This document shows positions 3,009 through 63,875 of a DNA stretch of 64,000 nucleotides, in pieces. The DNA is from Leptonemataceae bacterium (GTDB taxonomy: Bacteria; Spirochaetota; Leptospiria; Leptospirales; Leptonemataceae). Numbering within the stretch: position 1 is the stretch's first letter; each line of letters opens with the position of its first letter. The notes under the pieces were generated by a model. The model did not search any database. It saw only the letters and a program-made list of their open reading frames with translations, and was not told the origin of the DNA. Both the position numbers and the translations under genes were made by a program. Where the stretch lies: positions 3,008,001 through 3,072,000 of the forward strand of contig OZ245742.1 of assembly GCA_965227295.1 (NCBI GenBank), written 5' to 3'.

Positions 3009-3953
3009 TCAGCCGCCGAAGCGTTGGCCGCTCCGGAGGCCGAAGACCTCCACGAAGCGCGGGCCCGAGTAGAGTCCGGCCTCGGTCCACAGCACGTTCA
3101 GCCGCAGTTGTTTGTGATCGCGCGTATAGAGTCGCGGTCCGTCCGTGACGCTGATGATCGTACCCGGGGCCGCGCGTTCCTCCGGCGTCGCGTCGATGAC
3201 GTCGGCTTCCAGGACACGCACGCCCATGCCGTTGTAAACGCTGCGCGCCCCGCTGTAGGCCGGGTTCGACGCTCGCACGAGTGCTTCCAGATCCGCGGCG
3301 TTTTCCGTGACCAGGTTCAGCACAAGGTCCTGTTCGTTCGGCCGGCGGCACGCCGGATGCCGCGGCTCGCTCTGTTCCTGGAAGATCAACTCTTCCGGCT
3401 GCGATAGGAGCTGCATCACCGTTGCCGCGGCCTGCTGCATCGGACCCGCCATGCGGTGCAGGTGCAACGTGTAGGTGTCGTGGGCGGCCACGGTGAAACG
3501 TTCCTCGTGCAGGATGGGACCGGCGTCGAAGTTGTCCTCCATGCGCTGGACCGCCACGGCGCTTTCGGTTTCACGATAACGAATCATCCAGAAGATGGGG
3601 TCGATGCCGCGGTAGTCCGGAAGCAGGCCCGTGTGAAAATTCAGGAACCCCAGGCCTGGTTGTTCCAGCGCTTCCGCCGGAATCTTAAACGGAAAACATA
3701 ACACGAGGACGACGTCCGGTCGAAGTTCGGCCAGCCATGCCTGGAGTTCCGTTGCGAAGTCTTGTTCCGAAAAATTTCGCAGATGTGTTTCAGAAAACGT
3801 TCCGGCCCAGGGCCGGCCGCGGACCAGGGACCACATCGCTTCGCTCCGCGGAGTGCCCACTCCGACGAGCCGGCCGGTGGAGTGCAGATAGTCCAGGGCC
3901 GGCAGCGCCACGGGATGGCTGCTCAACACGGTGATACGTTCGGCATGCGGCAT
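3009..3953 (-). CDS. Methionyl-tRNA formyltransferase-like protein (formyltransferase family)
   Basis: NFHTGLLPDYRGIDPIFW, FDAGPIL, LVRASNP C-terminal domain; divergent N-terminus suggests a non-housekeeping paralogue. Confidence 0.8.
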   Translation of the reverse strand: MPHAERITVLSSHPVALPALDYLHSTGRLVGVGTPRSEAMWSLVRGRPWAGTFSETHLRNFSEQDFATELQAWLAELRPDVVLVLCFPFKIPAEALEQPGLGFLNFHTGLLPDYRGIDPIFWMIRYRETESAVAVQRMEDNFDAGPILHEERFTVAAHDTYTLHLHRMAGPMQQAAATVMQLLSQPEELIFQEQSEPRHPACRRPNEQDLVLNLVTENAADLEALVRASNPAYSGARSVYNGMGVRVLEADVIDATPEERAAPGTIISVTDGPRLYTRDHKQLRLNVLWTEAGLYSGPRFVEVFGLRSGQRFGG

Positions 3954-38910: not shown

Positions 38911-40956
38911 TTACGCAGAAAAATCGTCCAGCTCCCGGCGATTCGTGCGACGCAATTCGCGCAGATCGAAGCGGGCCGGGGCCTGGGCTGCCATGAGGTC
39001 CCGCTCGAGCCCGGTGATTTCTCCCGCGATGCGCGCCGCAAGGTACTCGGCGCCGAGGTGAGCGTACAGCAAACCGCGGGAACCCAGGGCTGTTAGTGTG
39101 TAGACGCCGGGGACGTAGATCTCCGGGCGCTGATCCTCGCGCGGTAACTCGATCGCGGCCGGGGCGCGGCCGGACTTAAGTTGTTCCAGGTAGAAGTTAC
39201 GAAGTTCATTGCGGTAATGCACCGGACCGATCAGCGGCAGACGATCGCGGCTGGTCGTGCGAAACTCTGCCCGGGCCGGCAGCTTTTCCGGCGCATTCGC
39301 AAGGCCGGCGAACACGGGACTGCGCGCGGTCAGTACGTCAAGCAGGCGCCGGTTTTGTTCGGGGATGACGTCGGGGTCATGGTTCCACTCCTCGAACGTT
39401 GCGCCGATGTGATGGTACAATTGATCGTCCGTGCCGCGGACCGGCGGGCTCGCGTAACCATCGTAGCAGAGAATACGCCGTAATGATTCGGTCGCGGGAT
39501 TCGCCGGGGCGGCAAGGGTCTGGCCGCGCACGGTTTTCAGCGGGTACTCCGGCACACCGTCCATGCTACTCAGTAAATCCAGACGCGAGGCTCCGTCGGT
39601 GATGATGACGGCCTCCGCGCGGGCGATCGTCTTACCGCCGGCATCGAGGACTTCCCAATCCTTCCCATTCCGGCGCAGGCGGGAGGCGTGAACCTGCGTG
39701 TGCAGCCGGATACCGTTTTGTTCGAGATGAGCGCGGCAGAGTTGCGGCGGCGCGGCGCACGGAGCGGTCGGGAAAAAGAGCCCGCCGTGATTGAGTTCTA
39801 TTCCGGCCAGGGACGAGGCCTCATCCGCCTCGACGTAGCGCGCAAATTCTTCCGGCAATGCCAGGGCCGCCAGGGATCGACGATAGCGTTCGACCAGGGC
39901 CGGGCTGTGCGCTAATAACAGAGCGCCGCACGTTAAGAAAAAAGGCGGATGATTCAAGTCCGCGAAACTTTGCAACAGGCGCTGGAAAAAACCGGAGGCG
40001 GCCAGAGCATAGCGCGTCGCGGCCGTGGGTTGCGCGCTCACGGCGGGTACGGCGATGCCGATGGCGTTGCCCGAGGCCCGTCGGCCCGGTCCGGCTTCGC
40101 GCTCCAACAGACTAACTTTCACTCCGCGCCGGCTCAGCGCCGCCGCCGCGGCCGTGCCGGCCAGACCCGCGCCGATGATCACGACGTTCTCTGCCGAAGG
40201 AACCCCGGCGTTGCCGCGGACCTGCGCCCTCCGGCCGATGAAGCGCCCGCGAAGCATGTCCCGCTTGCGTGCGAAGCCGGGAATCTTTTCGACCGTAAAG
40301 CCGGAATCGGCCAGGGCGCGCCGGGCCATGCCGGCACTCGTATAAGTGGCGAAGCTGGCATCGTCCGCGGAAAGACGGGCCAGTTCTTGAAAGAGATCGA
40401 TCATCCACATGTCCGGATTCTTTGCCGGGGCGAAACCATCCAGGAACCAGGCGTCCACATTCCAGACGTGCCCCGCTTCGAGGGCGGCGTAACACTCCAG
40501 CGCCTCACCGTACATGAGAAACAAAGTGGCGCGATCCTTGAACTGCAAGACGTGAATGCCCGGGTGCATGGGCGGATAACATTCGAGGAGTTCCTCCGCC
40601 TCGCGCCGCAGCTCCGGATACACGGCCAGGGCCCTGCGCAGATCTTCCGCGCGGAGCGGATGCTTCTCGCAGCTAATATACAGAAAACGTAAGTTAGAGG
40701 AAGCCCGCTCGCGAAACAGGCGCAGGCTTTCGCAGAAATTCAGGCCGGTGCCGAAGCCGGTTTCGCCGATGGTGAAGAGACCGTGTTCGCGTGCCGTGAA
40801 TCGTTCGGCGATACGATTGTGTTCGAGGAAGACATGCCGGCTTTCTTCCAGGCCGCCGGTTTCGTGGGAGTAGTAGACGTCATCGTATGTGAGTGAAATC
40901 GGCGTGCGGCCGTCGCGAAACTCCACCCGGGCGGGCTCGATGGGGCCGGTGATCAT
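38911..40956 (-). CDS. mnmC: Bifunctional tRNA mnm5s2U34 methyltransferase / FAD oxidoreductase
   Basis: DDVYYS, ETGFGTGLNF, WFLDGFAPAKNPDMW, IIGAGLAG, ASGN, LGSRGL. Confidence 0.95.
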   Translation of the reverse strand: MITGPIEPARVEFRDGRTPISLTYDDVYYSHETGGLEESRHVFLEHNRIAERFTAREHGLFTIGETGFGTGLNFCESLRLFRERASSNLRFLYISCEKHPLRAEDLRRALAVYPELRREAEELLECYPPMHPGIHVLQFKDRATLFLMYGEALECYAALEAGHVWNVDAWFLDGFAPAKNPDMWMIDLFQELARLSADDASFATYTSAGMARRALADSGFTVEKIPGFARKRDMLRGRFIGRRAQVRGNAGVPSAENVVIIGAGLAGTAAAAALSRRGVKVSLLEREAGPGRRASGNAIGIAVPAVSAQPTAATRYALAASGFFQRLLQSFADLNHPPFFLTCGALLLAHSPALVERYRRSLAALALPEEFARYVEADEASSLAGIELNHGGLFFPTAPCAAPPQLCRAHLEQNGIRLHTQVHASRLRRNGKDWEVLDAGGKTIARAEAVIITDGASRLDLLSSMDGVPEYPLKTVRGQTLAAPANPATESLRRILCYDGYASPPVRGTDDQLYHHIGATFEEWNHDPDVIPEQNRRLLDVLTARSPVFAGLANAPEKLPARAEFRTTSRDRLPLIGPVHYRNELRNFYLEQLKSGRAPAAIELPREDQRPEIYVPGVYTLTALGSRGLLYAHLGAEYLAARIAGEITGLERDLMAAQAPARFDLRELRRTNRRELDDFSA

Positions 40957-41018
40957 GGCCGCGATGATGAAAGCGATCGGGAAGATCGGTCAAGCCGTTT
41001 CGCCAGGCCGAACTAACG

Positions 41019-41384
41019 TTGCTTCCGTTTATTCCGCTCATGAAAGACGGCGGGCGATACATTGAACGCGCCTCGGAGAGAATACAGCACGAAGCTGATC
41101 TCTCTAACGATGAAAAAACGAGTTTACTGACGGTCTTATGCATCTATACTGGAATTCACGATCCCGAACGTGCGCGGGAAATTCTGAGCAAGGCAGGTCG
41201 GCTTATGATTGACTCACCCGTCTACGATTGGATTCGGCAGGAAGGTGTCGAGGAAGGCCGTGCGGAAGGAAAGCTCGAAGACGCGCAACGTATGCTGGAG
41301 CGCGGCATCGATCTCGCCACGGTCCTCGATGTTACCGGTTTGTCCGAAGACACGCTCCGCGAACGCGGGGTGTTGCCGGCCTGA
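41019..41384 (+). pseudogene. C-terminal fragment of Rpn/PD-(D/E)XK-like family gene (possibly expressing a 59-aa product from ATG 41205)
   Basis: Aligns to the C-terminal half of 59267-60061 (LPFIPLM, DEKTSLL, IYTGIHDPERAREI, SPVYDWIRQEG); N-terminal domain absent. Confidence 0.8.
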
Positions 41385-41396
41385 ACGAGCGGGGTC

Positions 41397-42134
41397 TCAG
41401 GACCCCGCCGGCGTTTTTTCCTGGACCTGCTGGTCCTTTTCTTCCTGGATCTTCTGCAATTCATCGAAGCCCGGCAGGCTGGAAAGATCGGGAAGAATCA
41501 CAATTTCGATGCGGCGGTTTTGCGCACGGCCGTCTTTGGTTTCGTTATCGCCCACGGGCGCGGTCTCCGCGAACGATGCGGCGCTCACCCGGACCGGCGG
41601 CATGCCGGCGTCGATCATGGTGTTGACCACGGTAATGGCCCGGCCGGCCCCGAGTTCCCAGTTCGAGCGAAAGCGCCGCGTGTTGATGGGCCAGTCGTCG
41701 GTGTGACCTTCAATCTGATACTTGCGTTCTTCGACTTCAACCAGCACGCTCGTGATTTCTTTGATCGTTTCGCGGCCTTCCGGGGACAGATCGGCGGAGC
41801 CGCTGGCGAAGAGGATGTCCGAGGGGAGTTCGACGGTCATGCGTCCGTCGACGATCTTTACTTTGAGTTTGCCGGCGTCGATGAGGTCCTTGAACTTCGC
41901 GAGCAGATCGCGGTACTCCTGAATGCGTTCGCGCGCTTCGCTGTTGCGCTCGCGCATTTCGGTGAGCGCGTCGGAGAGCGCGGAACGATCTTTGACGCAC
42001 GCGGCCTCGGTATCGGCCAGGTTTTGCTGGCACGCGTCCAGCTCGGCCTGGAGCTGATCGTACTTTTGCTGCGAAACGCAGGCGCTGCCCGCCGTGCTCG
42101 CAATGAGAATCATACTAAATAAGAAGCGTTGCAT
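41397..42134 (-). CDS. OmpA/MotB C-terminal-like lipoprotein
   Basis: CVSQQKY coiled coil; LFASGSA, IEGHTD, SNWELG, NRRIEI. Confidence 0.88.
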   Translation of the reverse strand: MQRFLFSMILIASTAGSACVSQQKYDQLQAELDACQQNLADTEAACVKDRSALSDALTEMRERNSEARERIQEYRDLLAKFKDLIDAGKLKVKIVDGRMTVELPSDILFASGSADLSPEGRETIKEITSVLVEVEERKYQIEGHTDDWPINTRRFRSNWELGAGRAITVVNTMIDAGMPPVRVSAASFAETAPVGDNETKDGRAQNRRIEIVILPDLSSLPGFDELQKIQEEKDQQVQEKTPAGS

Positions 42135-58493: not shown

Positions 58494-59258
58494 ATGAATT
58501 CTCGAATTGTTGTCTTGTTTGCGGCGGTCGCTTTCGCCGCGGTCGGTTGCGGCGGCCCACTGGCTGAGGCGCGCATGTGTCAGAAGCTCGAAGGCGGGGA
58601 GTGTCCCGAGGGCCTGGAGATGTTCGTGCGCACGGCGAAGCGTTTGTATCTGAGCGGTCATCCGAACGTGGGAGCCGGCGCCGGCATTGAAGTGGACGTG
58701 CTGTATCTCCCGGAACCGGAAACGCCGGAGAGTGTTTACAACACGGTCTTCGAAGTGCCCGAGGGTGACGGGCCGGTGGCGATTCCCCTGGAACCGGGGC
58801 GGCTGAAGGTCGGATCGTATCGCCTGGTGGCGGGGGAGGCGGGCGCGGAGCCGGCCCTGGCCATGGAGTTCAGCGTCTGGAACACCCAGGCGGAGATTGA
58901 TGCGTTGCGCGAACTGGGTGACAAACGCGGTGCGATTCTCACGAGCATTCGCGTTTGCAAAGAAGCGGTGGACAACGAGTGCGAAGAAAGCTTCGAAAGC
59001 ATGCCGCACGGACAGAAGCAGTTTCATCTTACGTTTCACTACGACGATGTCATCGACGGCACCGAGGTTTCGATCGAATGGCTACGCAACGGCAAACGCA
59101 TCCACTTTCAAAAGAATCCGGCGGATTCCAGCAGCGGTCGCATGTGGGCGATGATCGGTCTTAAGAACTCGCCCATGGCCCGCGGAAAGTACGAGGCGCG
59201 CATTACGGCTTCGAAGAGCAAGCAGGGGATGTTGCGGAAGACGTGGGTGGTGAAGTAG
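58494..59258 (+). CDS. Lipoprotein with two Ig-like repeats
   Basis: Lipobox AVGC; two CxxxxxxEC-initiated beta domains. Confidence 0.65.
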   Translation: MNSRIVVLFAAVAFAAVGCGGPLAEARMCQKLEGGECPEGLEMFVRTAKRLYLSGHPNVGAGAGIEVDVLYLPEPETPESVYNTVFEVPEGDGPVAIPLEPGRLKVGSYRLVAGEAGAEPALAMEFSVWNTQAEIDALRELGDKRGAILTSIRVCKEAVDNECEESFESMPHGQKQFHLTFHYDDVIDGTEVSIEWLRNGKRIHFQKNPADSSSGRMWAMIGLKNSPMARGKYEARITASKSKQGMLRKTWVVK

Positions 59259-59266
59259 GGGGAGGC

Positions 59267-60061
59267 TCAGGCGTCCTCTAAGACTCCGCGTTCGCGCAGT
59301 AGTTCTGCGGAGAGCCCGGTGGCCTCAATGACCGTGGCCGGATCGATCCCGAGTTCCAGCAAGCGCCGGGCAGTGTCGAGTTTGCCTTCTGCAATGCCTT
59401 CTTCACGGCCTTCTTCAATGCCTTCCTGGCGAATCCAATCGTAGACGGGAGACTCAAACATCAACGGACCTGCCTGGCGCATGATTTCCCGCGCACGCTC
59501 GGGATCGTGGATTCCAGTATAGATGTATAAAACCGAAAGTAAACTCGTTTTTTCATCCGGTGATAGGTTGTCTTCGTTTTGGATGCGTTGTCTTGCGCGC
59601 TCGACATACTGGTCGCCGTCCTGCATCAGGGGGATAAACGGCAGGATCGACACCCCGGCATCAATATAATCTGCTGCGGGCAATTCCCAGAGTTTCACAA
59701 GATGATAGCGAAATCGCAGGGCGTGGTCCGCGTACACATCTCGCGCGCCGGCATGCGGCCGAATCAAAAATACAAGCGCATCCACCGGCAGGCGATAGCG
59801 CAGCCAATAACGTGCATGGTACTCCACCAATCGCATGGGCAGGCCCGTCTCCCAGTTCGTCTGGTACTCTACTAAGACGACACGTTCCTCTCCGGATGCC
59901 AGAGTCATACGAACCGGCGCGTCGGATCGACGGACGTTGACGGTTTCCGTCGGCAGTTCGTCGAGAGTCTGAATTGCCGACGGCCGGACCTGTAGGAACT
60001 TTTGTAAGATCTCGTGTCCGCTGATCTGCATGAATTCTTTGGATGCGATGTCGTACTGCAT
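59267..60061 (-). CDS. Rpn family recombination-promoting nuclease/putative transposase-like (PD-(D/E)XK)
   Basis: YDIASK, RRSD, LVEYQT, MRLVEY, LPFIPL, EGIEEGREEG repeat, HTH-like tail ATGLS. Confidence 0.8.
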   Translation of the reverse strand: MQYDIASKEFMQISGHEILQKFLQVRPSAIQTLDELPTETVNVRRSDAPVRMTLASGEERVVLVEYQTNWETGLPMRLVEYHARYWLRYRLPVDALVFLIRPHAGARDVYADHALRFRYHLVKLWELPAADYIDAGVSILPFIPLMQDGDQYVERARQRIQNEDNLSPDEKTSLLSVLYIYTGIHDPERAREIMRQAGPLMFESPVYDWIRQEGIEEGREEGIAEGKLDTARRLLELGIDPATVIEATGLSAELLRERGVLEDA

Positions 60062-60229
60062 GACGCGGCCTGCCAGAGCTGCGTCCAGTATATCAGATCC
60101 GGGTTGGTGTCAAGGAAGAAATGTAGAATGGATCGCGATGTGCGGGCTGCTTTATGAATCGCCTGTAATGTCTCGCAGTCAGGATGCTGCGGTAGTCACG
60201 AGTGGTGAAGCAGGGGATAGGGTGCCCTT

Positions 60230-60721
60230 TCAGATTTCACGGATATATCGAATGGGAATGAACGAGATGTTTTCCGTCTGATCTAGCTTCCCGTCATCTT
60301 CGGCGCCCGTTACGGCGATGCCGACGACTCGACCGCTCTTATTGAACACTGGTCCGCCACTGTTTCCTGCAACAATACCCGAGTCGAGCAGGATACGTTT
60401 GATTCCGGAAACCATTCTATGGCCCGTGATTCGGACTTCCTTTCGGATGCCGGAGTCTCCATGGCGATAGTTTGGAAAGCCGCATACATATAGTGTTTCT
60501 CCGGTGTGGTAAGATGCGTTGTATTCCGCCTGAAAAGGGATTGTAGACACGGATGAATAGCACTCACAGACTGCAAGGTCGATGTCGGACGACCTTTTCA
60601 CTAAGTTGAGGGAGAAACTCTTGGTATCCTGATCGCGCAAGAAGGCTTTCGAATCTGCAAATACGACATGATCGCAAGTTACAATGCCCAGATCTTCCAA
60701 GGCGAATGCTGTTCCCTGCAT
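60230..60721 (-). CDS. Trypsin-like serine protease (retron effector; in frame with RT, domain extends to 60787)
   Basis: GTAF, VTCDHVV (His), DIDLAV (Asp), GFP, GNSGGPV (Ser), VVGI. Confidence 0.9.
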   Translation of the reverse strand: MQGTAFALEDLGIVTCDHVVFADSKAFLRDQDTKSFSLNLVKRSSDIDLAVCECYSSVSTIPFQAEYNASYHTGETLYVCGFPNYRHGDSGIRKEVRITGHRMVSGIKRILLDSGIVAGNSGGPVFNKSGRVVGIAVTGAEDDGKLDQTENISFIPIRYIREI

Positions 60722-60787
60722 AGCCTCCTGCTCAGATTCTACAACGAATATGCTGTTCCACTCAGAAATCGGAGGTGGTGCGACAAT

Positions 60788-61774
60788 TTAATCTGGAAGC
60801 ACGGATCTGAGTCTATCAAAGTAATTCTGATACACGGGATGATAAGGCCCCAATATCGCATATAAAAAGCTGAGCTTGCCGTTGATATGATGTACCAAAG
60901 ACGGATCGCGATCGCGGTATCGATTCCTATTTGCATATTTCGTTGAGAACTCTTCTTGGGTTTTCTTCAGGTCTTCCTTCCGTATTTTGCTGTAAATCGC
61001 TCTGAGCTCTCTTATGAATTTTCTGCCCGGAGTGACCGAGCTAGTCACTCGTAGGCCGGTGACGATTCCGCCGTTACTACCGTAGTAGAATTTTTGTTTC
61101 CGGCGGTTAATATGAAACCCATTTTCTTGGATGCAGTCCTCTATAGTATTCTGTAGAGATTGAGGTAGTTGGCCCGGGGATGACAGGTATTTCTTACTGC
61201 GGGATGAAAATGTAAGGTCGTCGGCGTAACGAGTATAGAATATCGAATATTCTCGGGCAACGGAGAGAAGATCGCGATCCATACTTCTGCAGACGATGTT
61301 AGACAGGATCGGAGATGCCGGAGAGCCAAGCGGAAGTGCGTTATCCAATGTGCTTAGCCTTGAAATGGCAACCGCGACTTGTTTATTGAAGCAAAAAGGT
61401 CTACCTCTTAGAGCACCGAGCACTCTTCCGAAATTGATAGAACCGAAAAAGTCCTCAAGATCCAGATTTAGAATCCACGCCGCGCCAACGTGCTGCCTGG
61501 CATTCGTGATAATACTCCGGCCAGTTCTGAAACCATGAGTCGAGCCCGGCGCAGTGTACGATTGTTCCAAAAGGGTTTTGATTTTCCTCTGCAAGGCTTT
61601 GAGGTAACTACCCGGGGCCGCAATTTGGCGGGCCTTTCCTTCGTATTTCACAATTTCGTGGCGACTGTAGAAGGAGGGCAGGTAGGCCTTAAATGCAAAG
61701 AACTCTAACCCTTTGTAGCTAACATTCAAAATTTGTGCGAGCTGGTGTAGGTTCCCCGGATAATTCGTTTCCAT
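60788..61774 (-). CDS. Retron-type reverse transcriptase
   Basis: RQIAAP, HGF, NARQH (retron NAxxH), DLEDFFGSI, LPLGSPASP, YTRYADDLTFS, IVTGL (retron VTG); ATG 61774 with GAGG upstream. Confidence 0.93.
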   Translation of the reverse strand: METNYPGNLHQLAQILNVSYKGLEFFAFKAYLPSFYSRHEIVKYEGKARQIAAPGSYLKALQRKIKTLLEQSYTAPGSTHGFRTGRSIITNARQHVGAAWILNLDLEDFFGSINFGRVLGALRGRPFCFNKQVAVAISRLSTLDNALPLGSPASPILSNIVCRSMDRDLLSVAREYSIFYTRYADDLTFSSRSKKYLSSPGQLPQSLQNTIEDCIQENGFHINRRKQKFYYGSNGGIVTGLRVTSSVTPGRKFIRELRAIYSKIRKEDLKKTQEEFSTKYANRNRYRDRDPSLVHHINGKLSFLYAILGPYHPVYQNYFDRLRSVLPD

Positions 61775-61785
61775 AAGTAAAAATA

Positions 61786-61912
61786 GCCTCGTTAGAGTTC
61801 GCACTCTGATACATCAACCGACTACAGTCAGTCGCAAAGTCACATAAAGCGTTCTCAGGATTCATGTCCTGAATCGGCTGCAGTAACAACAGCCTTGAAA
61901 AACTCTGGAGGC
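61786..61912 (-). ncRNA. Putative retron msr-msd ncRNA
   Basis: Terminal arms GCCTCCAGAGTT (61912-61901) / AACTCTAACGAGGC (61799-61786) enclose hairpins at 61876-61894, 61855-61872 and 61819-61834; directly upstream of the retron RT. Confidence 0.6.
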
Positions 61913-62135
61913 AGTTGCAAATGGGCCTTCCCAATGCTCACATTTATTGTTATTAGTAGGATCAAAACTAGTTATAGTGGGTTTAGGGTCAATACAATAA
62001 GCCAGCCTGATATCCCGTCGTCTTACTGAAGCTCTCATCCTCCTGTAAAATCTTCCCCATCTGCCACCGCCCGCCAGAATGTCAGCCCCACGCAAAAAAT
62101 CGCAACCGAATCGCCCCATCGGCACGCCTTCTCTC

Positions 62136-62151
62136 CGGCACGCCGGTTGCA
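62136..62151 (+). promoter_or_regulatory. Putative sigma54 (-24/-12) promoter of hsp20
   Basis: CGGCACG-CCGG-TTGCA with exact GG-N10-GC spacing, ~55 nt before ATG. Confidence 0.65.
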
Positions 62152-62205
62152 ATCCTCTTACCAACAGCAGCGGCCGACCGCCGCACATAGACTGGAGGAA
62201 CAACA

Positions 62206-62610
62206 ATGGCAGCATTAACGAAATACCGTACCCCGAGTCTCCTGGACCTCTTCTACGATGAAGAGCGGCGCCCGGAAAGCCGGAAGTACCGCCCGGCCGT
62301 AGCCGTACGCAAAAACGAGGCTGAGTATCAGCTCGTCGCCCATCTGCCGGGCGTGCGCAAAGAAGACTTGAACATCGCCGTGGAAGACGGCGTGCTCAAG
62401 ATCAGCGGCAAAGTCGCGGCGCACGCGGCGGAAGGATACGAAACCATCTACGACGAACTGCACGGCGCCGCCGAGTTCGAGCGCAACCTGAAGATCGATG
62501 CACGTCACTTTCAGGTAGATCGCATCGAAGCGAAGTTAAGCGACGGTGTGCTGACGGTAAACCTGCCGGTGGCCGAGGCGGTGAAGCCGCGGCAGATCAG
62601 CGTGGGTTAA
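62206..62610 (+). CDS. Hsp20/alpha-crystallin small heat-shock protein
   Basis: LPGVRKEDL, LKISG, FERNL, AKLSDGVLTVNLP, PRQISV; GGAGG RBS. Confidence 0.92.
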   Translation: MAALTKYRTPSLLDLFYDEERRPESRKYRPAVAVRKNEAEYQLVAHLPGVRKEDLNIAVEDGVLKISGKVAAHAAEGYETIYDELHGAAEFERNLKIDARHFQVDRIEAKLSDGVLTVNLPVAEAVKPRQISVG

Positions 62611-62623
62611 GAGAATCAAATAT

Positions 62624-62668
62624 AACCACCGAGGCACCGAGGACACTGAGACCGGTGCCCCGGTGGTT
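62624..62668. terminator. Hairpin between convergent genes
   Basis: AACCACCGAGGCACCG...CGGTGCCCCGGTGGTT. Confidence 0.55.
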
Positions 62669-62678
62669 TACCCCTCTT

Positions 62679-63875
62679 TCACTTCAACATCCACCGCACG
62701 TGATTGTAGTTCCACTCGATATCGTCCACCGTGCGTTCGCTTTCCGCGAAGCGGCCGATCTTGCGCGCATCGCAAACATAACCGCCGCGAACCTTTGAAA
62801 GATAGCGCCCGGCCCGTCGTTTCCAGAACCGCCCCAGGCGATCCTCGGCGTAGGTCGCGTCCGCGAGCGGCGAAGGCGGGCACTCCGGATGTTCGCGGAG
62901 CCGCGCAACGATCTCCAGGTAACGCTCGCGAAATTCCGCGCGCGTAAACGCATCGCGGCCCCGCCAATCGTGCAGGACCGCGGCGACGGCGTGACTCGCC
63001 GTGGGGATCGTGTTTTCCGTTAACGTGCGCCGGCCGTCATCTAAGAAATCCTCAATGCGTTCCCGTTCCGGCGGTGACACCGGCGGTCGCAGACGCAGGA
63101 ACGCCGCAATGCGGCCGAAGACGTCCGGGCACAGTTCATCGTAACTCATGGAGCCGAAGATCGTGCGCGCGTTTTTGCGACAGGCGAAGACGCCCATGAA
63201 ATCCTGGAGTTGCAGCACACGACCGTCGTGGCGGTAAGCGCCCTCGGGCATAATGAAAAACAATCGATTGTGATGTTCGAAGTCCTCCTGCACGGCGACG
63301 AGGGAATGCAGCGTCGTGCGGCGCGCGGTTTTGACGAAGGCGTCGTAGCCGAGGCCGGTGAGCCGCCGCCCGGCGAAGATCGTCGGATCATCGTATGCTT
63401 CCCGCTCGGGAACATCGCGTCCTTCGCGGTAGACCGGATGACAGTGCACGCCTTCGAAAATTCGTTTCACGAGCGCGCCGAGGGATTTCGCCGCGCCAAG
63501 GCCGAGCGGCCGGAGCAGCGTGTTCCGCTTGATGAACGGCGGCATGAGATCGCGGTATGGGTAGATGGGACCGAAGAGACCGCCCTGGGCAATGATCGTG
63601 AAGTCCTGGAAGCATTCGATCGGCCGGCCGATCATGAACTCGATGATGGAGTATACGTCGAGGGCCTTCTTGTGCGAGAACGCCAGGATCGGCGCCGGTT
63701 CGTCGCAACGCGGTAGATGTTCGTAGCCGTCGACGTAAAGTTCTTCTAATAAAAGGGGCAGCCGACCAATGCAGCGAAAGCGCGCGCCCCAGCGCACGGC
63801 CGCCGGTCCGACCAGTTTCGCCAGTTCGGCGCGGCGTTGAAGATTGCGACGGGACAGCGGGCGAACGGCGATCAT
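62679..63875 (-). CDS. Glycerolipid acyltransferase-like protein
   Basis: SHKKALD (HxxxxD), FIMPEG; start uncertain. Confidence 0.6.
   Translation of the reverse strand: MIAVRPLSRRNLQRRAELAKLVGPAAVRWGARFRCIGRLPLLLEELYVDGYEHLPRCDEPAPILAFSHKKALDVYSIIEFMIGRPIECFQDFTIIAQGGLFGPIYPYRDLMPPFIKRNTLLRPLGLGAAKSLGALVKRIFEGVHCHPVYREGRDVPEREAYDDPTIFAGRRLTGLGYDAFVKTARRTTLHSLVAVQEDFEHHNRLFFIMPEGAYRHDGRVLQLQDFMGVFACRKNARTIFGSMSYDELCPDVFGRIAAFLRLRPPVSPPERERIEDFLDDGRRTLTENTIPTASHAVAAVLHDWRGRDAFTRAEFRERYLEIVARLREHPECPPSPLADATYAEDRLGRFWKRRAGRYLSKVRGGYVCDARKIGRFAESERTVDDIEWNYNHVRWMLK

Follow-up and report, generated by a model that had tools for sequence, protein, structure and literature searches.

The interrupted gene and its surroundings

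On the minus strand of the window, by which we mean the entire 64,000-nucleotide stretch of DNA that was analyzed, a reverse transcriptase (RT) frame starts at ATG 61774 (a GTG at 61804 is also open as an alternative upstream start) and ends at a TAA at 60790-60788. This TAA is followed directly, in the RT frame, by 22 sense codons (IVAPPPISEWNSIFVVESEQEA, 60787-60722) without a further stop, and these lead into a protease frame beginning MQGTAF, which runs from ATG 60721-60719 to TGA 60232-60230. The layout is exactly as it had been described in an earlier sequence-only reading of this DNA, which had also drawn attention to an AGGAGG (60729-60724) located 2 nt upstream of ATG 60721. The AGGAGG was confirmed, and its spacing is atypical in this genome, where GGAGG upstream of first ATGs had its peak at 5-10 nt (123 of 190 cases) and did not exceed background at 2 nt (5 of 190); of 34 AGGAGG occurrences none stood at 2 nt. 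Over the whole stretch RT and protease formed one match in the genome, covering residues 1-514 with one TAA inside it, and this interrupted copy was the only type XI retron copy in the host genome. We concluded that this is a type XI retron, canonical in its other respects, and that its interruption by a single codon is real. The features of the interrupted gene, all on the minus strand, are as follows.

60788..61774, minus strand: RT frame, 328 aa plus TAA, with the motifs NAxxH (TNARQH), YADD and VTG
60788..60790, minus strand: interrupting TAA, residue 329 of the read-through protein, in a Pro-rich linker between RT helix 313-325 and protease strand 342-347
60722..60787, minus strand: 22 in-frame sense codons, comprising linker and the first protease beta-strand, IFVVES (60734-60751)
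60724..60729, minus strand: AGGAGG arising from codons CAG GAG GCT, 2 nt before ATG 60721
60230..60721, minus strand: trypsin-like (HtrA/DegS-like) serine protease frame, 163 aa, matching Trypsin_2 and RT-Protease_XI
60668-60670, 60578-60580 and 60359-60361, minus strand: catalytic residues His369, Asp399 and Ser472, respectively, in the protease frame

The GC content of the island in which the retron lies is 45-50% versus 59.8% for the genome, and the neighbors of the retron are an Hsp20 gene on one side and a weak Rpn-family match on the other. Neither of two genomes from the same genus had a match to the locus, and they shared only about 67% nucleotide identity with it in part of the flank; run X3, which bears the same species label but comes from another study, was also without the locus. 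A low-GC setting, and a locus that is absent from both same-genus genomes and from run X3, fit what would be a recent horizontal acquisition. Directly downstream of the retron lies a 264-aa ORF (59267-60061, minus strand) whose C-terminal part matches the Rpn family (recombination-promoting nuclease/putative transposase) at 47.9 bits, below the cut-off of 52.1, and which had no Pfam match. Two further observations concern the rest of the genome. Other RT-like frames occur in pairs, at G000:C1:2021299-2021826 and 2368542-2369069 and at 40667-41515 and 765174-766022 (472 aa and 624 aa), with identical scores within each pair, and are probably repeated mobile RT elements, for example group II introns. 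Outside the window, at G000:C1:4547528-4559530, about 40 tRNA genes are closely packed in two inverted blocks that cover most amino acids; the arrangement resembles the tRNA array of a mobile element or prophage, and none of its tRNAs is a suppressor.

The read-through product and type XI retrons

The RT half of the interrupted gene matched Pfam RVT_1 (1.5e-24) and the protease half matched Trypsin_2 (3e-17). With the PADLOC models for RT-Protease_XI (PDLC02959/PDLC02960), which are annotated 'single gene' and ranked first among the PADLOC models for both halves, the RT half matched positions 10-321 (1.9e-93), and for this half alone the margin of RT-Protease_XI was small, 312 versus 304 bits. 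The protease taken from its ATG matched positions 349-502 of PDLC02960 with 118 bits; when the 22 codons were added, the protease match widened to 336-502 and rose to 131 bits, indicating that the continuity of the RT and protease frames is more than chance. The complete read-through protein (P0001, 514 aa, with X written at the stop) matched PDLC02960 in one stretch, residues 8-513 corresponding to positions 8-502 of 506, with 446 bits, as against 303 bits for the next-best family, RT-TIR_XII. An intact Leptospira relative (P0003) gave 460 bits on the same RT-Protease_XI profile. The motifs of retron RTs are present as TNARQH (region X, NAxxH), RYADD, and IVTGL (region Y, VTG), and their residues N91, A92 and H95, Y183, A184, D185 and D186, and T239 and G240 fall in invariant columns of alignment A1. 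The protease half keeps its catalytic triad, and an alignment of 123 sequences showed no variation at H369 or S472 and almost none at D399. Judged from these matches, the predicted read-through product is a canonical type XI retron protein, and the proposal of the sequence-only reading that the ancestral product was an RT-protease fusion of about 514 aa is well supported by the full-length RT-Protease_XI match and by the fused relatives described below.

Canonical type XI retrons are described in passages of Toro 2026 (PMC13712802) as having a single ORF for RT and protease; here the ORF is broken by the TAA at 60790-60788. The locus resembles type XI retrons in its retron RT motifs, Pro-rich linker, HtrA-like protease with a His/Asp/Ser triad, and order of parts, and the Leptospira members of the type are 45-46% identical to the read-through protein; it differs in that the defining single ORF is cut by one linker TAA, which is absent from the other members examined. 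A second group to which it can be compared is the RT-only lineages related to type XI that are treated in the same text (PMC13712802), with which it shares an RT-only ORF and an effector located elsewhere; as described there, however, those lineages are without protease and recruit WYL or DnaB_C, whereas here the protease lies in frame, 22 codons downstream. The protease half itself matches Trypsin_2, DegS, HtrA1 and MarP, with the N-terminal strand included, but unlike the S1C proteases HtrA, DegS and MarP it has no PDZ domain, signal peptide or membrane anchor, and is cytoplasmic and attached to the RT. A type XI retron divided into an RT and a free protease was not described in the literature searched, supplements aside, and in the text of PMC13712802 the terms stop codon, pseudogene, truncated, frameshift and stand-alone protease each occur 0 times.

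When the RT half was compared with known structures using Foldseek, it matched the RTs of retrons Eco2 and Ec86, with a TM score of 0.80 to the 309-residue Ec86 RT chain. The closest solved structure was that of retron Eco2/Ec67 (PDB 9lm3 and 9i2f; phmmer 9e-37, Foldseek 1.2e-23). Eco2/Ec67 (type I-C, RT-TOPRIM) is likewise a single-gene fusion of RT and effector from the same RT clade; its effector, however, is a TOPRIM nuclease and not a protease, and the alignment is confined to the RT part.

Continuity of the examined relatives across the stop

When 5.8 billion proteins were searched with P0001, the best 120 matches comprised the RT of the window itself (328 aa) and 119 other proteins, which were 479-647 aa long. 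Both Pfam labels were present on all but one of the 119, and the exception (P0004) aligned over the protease part too. The column of the stop was continuous in every one of these 119 database relatives, which are the best matches listed. The nearest relatives were at loci L090 (46% identity) and L091 (45%), and these two, both without the stop, were also the only full-length matches among 156 same-order genomes. The codon aligned to the TAA in L090 is GAA (Glu), one base apart, although at 46% identity the ancestral codon at this position cannot be known. No relative above 46% identity was found among the 5.8 billion proteins, 61 related genomes, the 156 same-order genomes, plasmids and phages.

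Of 81 loci examined, 20 had a protease match, which in 19 lay in the RT's own frame and ORF. At three further loci (L034, L045 and L046) queries made from the alignment matched as far as residue 477-496 in one long ORF, matches that protease-only tblastn had missed. The 61 loci that gave no protease match did not contain a separate protease either. Four of the plasmid matches spanned at least 94% of the query and were unbroken. A stop that served as a programmed recoding site would be expected at the same position in relatives; it was found in 0 of 119 proteins, 0 of 2 same-order full-length matches and 0 of 19 other protease-bearing loci.

A split of another kind was seen at L032, a locus from a Parcubacteria MAG, in which a 1-nt frameshift (at 3390-3410) falls at another site, inside a conserved motif of the RT C-terminus (GKINFVK / MVKG). 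This frameshift could be an assembly error or mark a pseudogene. The second frame of L032 begins at a conserved Met, and three short database proteins (P0175, P0232 and P0241) begin at the same Met.

The stop in independent assemblies and in the genetic code of the host

An error of sequencing or assembly had been put forward as one origin of the TAA. Logan contigs of two runs, X1 (depth 174.6) and X2 (depth 11.7), were identical to the window over 60230-61800, with 0 other letters and 0 gaps, and since both re-assembled runs show the same TAA such an error is unlikely. The wider form of this explanation is that the TAA arose by sequencing, polishing or assembly error or as a mutation of the sequenced culture only. 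It draws on the fact that X1 and X2 are two samples of one study, possibly the source of the assembly itself, and that it was contigs that were inspected; the sequenced culture may carry a private mutation. No RNA data set was among the public runs listed for this DNA. Against it, independent Logan assemblies of two runs and two samples agree, and at such depth a substitution error is unlikely. We therefore regard an artefactual or culture-specific TAA as very improbable.

We looked for suppressors of the stop in the host genome with ARAGORN, which called 86 tRNAs, 85 of them with readable anticodons, and a tmRNA. None of the 85 readable anticodons (tta, cta and tca were sought) would read a stop codon. 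Both release factors recognize UAA, which of the bacterial stops is the least leaky. In the genome TAA closes 1661 of 4836 crude long ORFs (34%); TAA is an ordinary stop in this host.

These results bear on the suggestion that the stop is read through on purpose, a 58-kDa toxic fusion being made only when the TAA is suppressed, whether by a phage ochre suppressor tRNA or under stress. The 22 codons, in frame and containing conserved residues, would indeed give a complete fusion upon suppression, and phages that bring suppressor tRNAs are known from passages of PMC11210395. The phage recoding treated in that text, however, is of TAG and TGA, and the word TAA occurs in it 0 times. Moreover, the stop is present in none of the 119 proteins and neither of the 2 same-order full-length matches, there is no conserved recoding signal, and the host has neither an ochre suppressor among its 85 readable tRNAs nor an unusual use of TAA. 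Programmed or phage-triggered read-through, as offered by the sequence-only reading, thus finds no support in these results, and we judge conditional read-through to be extremely improbable. Its most specific version, in which the ochre codon acts as a gate so that the cell would normally hold a harmless RT-msDNA and would make the toxic fusion upon suppression of the stop, for instance by a suppressor tRNA of an infecting phage, seems to us barely credible; if it were true, the retron would sense the infecting phage's own recoding machinery.

Condition of the protease half and its possible separate production

The read-through protein was modeled with AlphaFold2 (mean pLDDT 94.1, pTM 0.87). 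In the model the last RT helix spans residues 313-325, and beyond a linker come two strands, IFVVES at 342-347 and MQGTAFAL at 352-359. As the stop at residue 329 falls between the RT helix and the first protease strand of this model, it is placed in the inter-domain linker. Aligned chains of HtrA1 begin at residue 342. The columns of F343, V344, V345 and E346 are conserved, with 107 of 119 relatives having Glu at the last of these. The assignment of SIFVVE as the strand that precedes GTAF in trypsin-like domains, made from the sequence earlier, agrees with the AlphaFold2 model, with the HtrA1 alignment and with the extension of the profile match. When the 185 aa beyond the stop were used as query against 1.84 billion representatives, 140 of the best 150 matches began at query residue 15 or earlier, and thus before Met 352, which is residue 23 of this query. 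A product started at ATG 60721 would, according to the model, lack the conserved first beta-strand at 342-347.

The frame past the stop showed no decay: in its 185 codons we found no second lesion and no excess divergence. For pairs that include the window's protein the ratio of protease identity to RT identity averaged 1.05, versus 0.88 (sd 0.14) for 171 other pairs, and none of the 20 sequences had a higher ratio than the window's. The sequence thus gives no sign of relaxed constraint on the protease, which would be so either if the stop is young or if the frame is still selected.

The second possibility leads to gene fission, that is, to a two-gene retron made up of a 328-aa RT and a protease translated separately, by re-initiation or from a weak Shine-Dalgarno (SD)-led start at ATG 60721, which would join the RT-msDNA non-covalently. 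The position of the stop is what fission would require, since a random stop would fall in the inter-domain linker in only about 3% of cases. The absence of decay, with the best protease/RT ratio of the 20 sequences, also speaks for it, and most retron types have a separate effector protein according to passages of Mestre 2020 (PMC7736814). The start codon points the same way at first sight: the column of M352 contains Met in 0 of 119 relatives, and this Met follows an AGGAGG. However, a Met stood one column earlier in 8 of 119 relatives, lay no more than 3 residues from QGT in 8 of 119, and occurred by chance anywhere in the 22 residues in 32 of 119, which makes ATG 60721 weak as a sign of adaptation. 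The AGGAGG lies outside the 5-10 nt spacing of this genome, and it is composed of the codons of a Q-E-A stretch that reads N-E-A in the nearest relative. Against fission stand, in addition, the N-terminally incomplete product from ATG 60721 and the failure of the arrangement to recur, no separate protease having been found at the 61 loci without a protease match and the only split, L032, being a frameshift. Genuine fission, one of the alternatives listed in the sequence-only reading, is therefore weakened by the relatives and by the missing strand; we consider it unlikely, if still deserving of serious attention.

Three other results were of no help in this matter. A complex prediction for RT 1-328 with protease 352-514 scored 0.00 in both runs and has no bearing either way. 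A sigma-70-like site at 60866-60839, in the 3' end of the RT frame, was considered as an internal promoter and rejected, such sites being at chance level (2 versus 2.5 expected). A direct repeat of 31 nt (60685-60715 and 60729-60759, 74% identity) is probably due to chance, its spacing of 44 nt not being a multiple of 3; it links the segments that encode WNSIFVVESEQ and GTAFALEDLGI, in which the protease has its first two strands.

Stand-alone protease proteins in the databases

Short proteins that consist of this protease module alone exist in the databases (P0123, P0177, P0190, P0199 and P0205), and 17 of the best 149 non-self representatives are below 250 aa. Their existence may count as a further point for fission. 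Several of them begin at the conserved Met of MVRG inside the RT C-terminus, as in L032. P0124, which starts MKQGTAF, was considered as a possible further split at this position and rejected, since it falls into one cluster with P0126, a non-RT protein of 377 aa; it counts against fission rather than for it. As a separate observation, P0126, P0127 and about 85 of the best 149 representatives show the most frequent setting of the protease module, which they carry at the C-terminus of proteins of 300-449 aa, which have a non-RT N-terminal domain of about 170 aa and keep a WVLESE-like first strand. PADLOC models match only the protease part of P0126/P0127-type proteins, which form a large family of probable defense proteases with an unnamed N-terminal domain.

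A conserved hairpin upstream of the RT

Upstream of the RT frame we found a non-coding block that is better kept than the proteins, given that L090 and L091 share just 45-46% protein identity with the window's protein.

61858..61904, minus strand: conserved non-coding block, about 85-130 nt before ATG 61774, near-identical in L090 and L091
61876-61894, minus strand: hairpin GGCTG-TTGTTACTG-CAGCC, with a 5-bp stem, predicted by RNAalifold, and a 9-nt loop

The 19-nt hairpin is exact in L090 (1358-1376) and has 1 mismatch in L091 (1343-1361). It is also found upstream of two other clade-related RTs: in L064 (2273-2291) it has 2 mismatches, one of which changes U-A to U-G while the other lies in the loop, and in L093 (minus strand) its 2 mismatches form a compensatory change of a G-C pair to C-G. 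A search of 59000-63000 on both strands against Rfam gave no family at E up to 1, and in passages of the 2020 classification type XI has no recognisable ncRNA (Mestre 2020, PMC7736814). We propose the hairpin block as a candidate for the msr-like part of the retron ncRNA. The ncRNA of type XI retrons may become easier to define with this conserved hairpin, which the window shares with type XI loci of Leptospira.

Discussion

The reading that we favor, and hold to be reasonably probable, is that the TAA is a young nonsense mutation in the inter-domain linker, which separates the protease effector from a still complete RT and probably puts this effector out of action. Of the four alternatives offered by the sequence-only reading it is this one, a nonsense mutation that disarms the effector and keeps the RT, which fits best. 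We propose that a single substitution created an ochre codon in the flexible linker of a horizontally acquired type XI retron. Translation would then stop after the 328-aa RT, which, measured against stand-alone retron RTs, is complete; being Ec86-like in size and fold, this RT would, by analogy, still make msDNA, and msDNA synthesis may thus persist. The protease would be untethered, and either not made at all or made at a low level as a 163-aa fragment from ATG 60721 without the first strand of the beta-barrel. The mutation is probably young, because the 185 codons past the stop contain no second lesion or excess divergence. The loss may have been neutral, or it may have been selected because it relieved the toxicity of a newly acquired effector.

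What such an uncoupling would mean can be considered on the model of retron Eco2, which serves as a working model for type XI. According to passages of PMC12916289, the attached effector of Eco2 is caged by a scaffold of branched msDNA, and the cage lasts until this msDNA is degraded by a nuclease of the phage. The authors of that paper state in the same passages that type XI is without a demonstrated mechanism, and the texts of PMC7736814, PMC13712802 and PMC12916289, in the parts consulted, contain no tested example of defense by a type XI retron. If the covalent tether matters as it does on the Eco2 model, the most likely effect of the TAA is that the effector becomes uncoupled and is disabled, and with its tether cut the retron would, by this analogy, most likely be disabled as a defense system.

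Several features sit less easily with a young nonsense mutation. The stop falls within a linker of about 15 residues, or about 3% of the 514 codons, where a functional fission needs it; M352 is unique to this protein and is preceded by an SD-like AGGAGG; and the protease is as conserved as any in the family, as a separate selected gene would be. Even with these features taken into account, a young disabling mutation is the explanation that we favor.

The immediate practical consequence of the stop is that annotation pipelines will report two genes at this locus, a 'reverse transcriptase' and a 'trypsin-like peptidase'. As a natural allele in which RT and effector are uncoupled at the linker, it provides a control for the need of a covalent tether in type XI retrons. 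If the two halves do work separately, single-gene and two-gene retron architectures would interconvert by one mutation.
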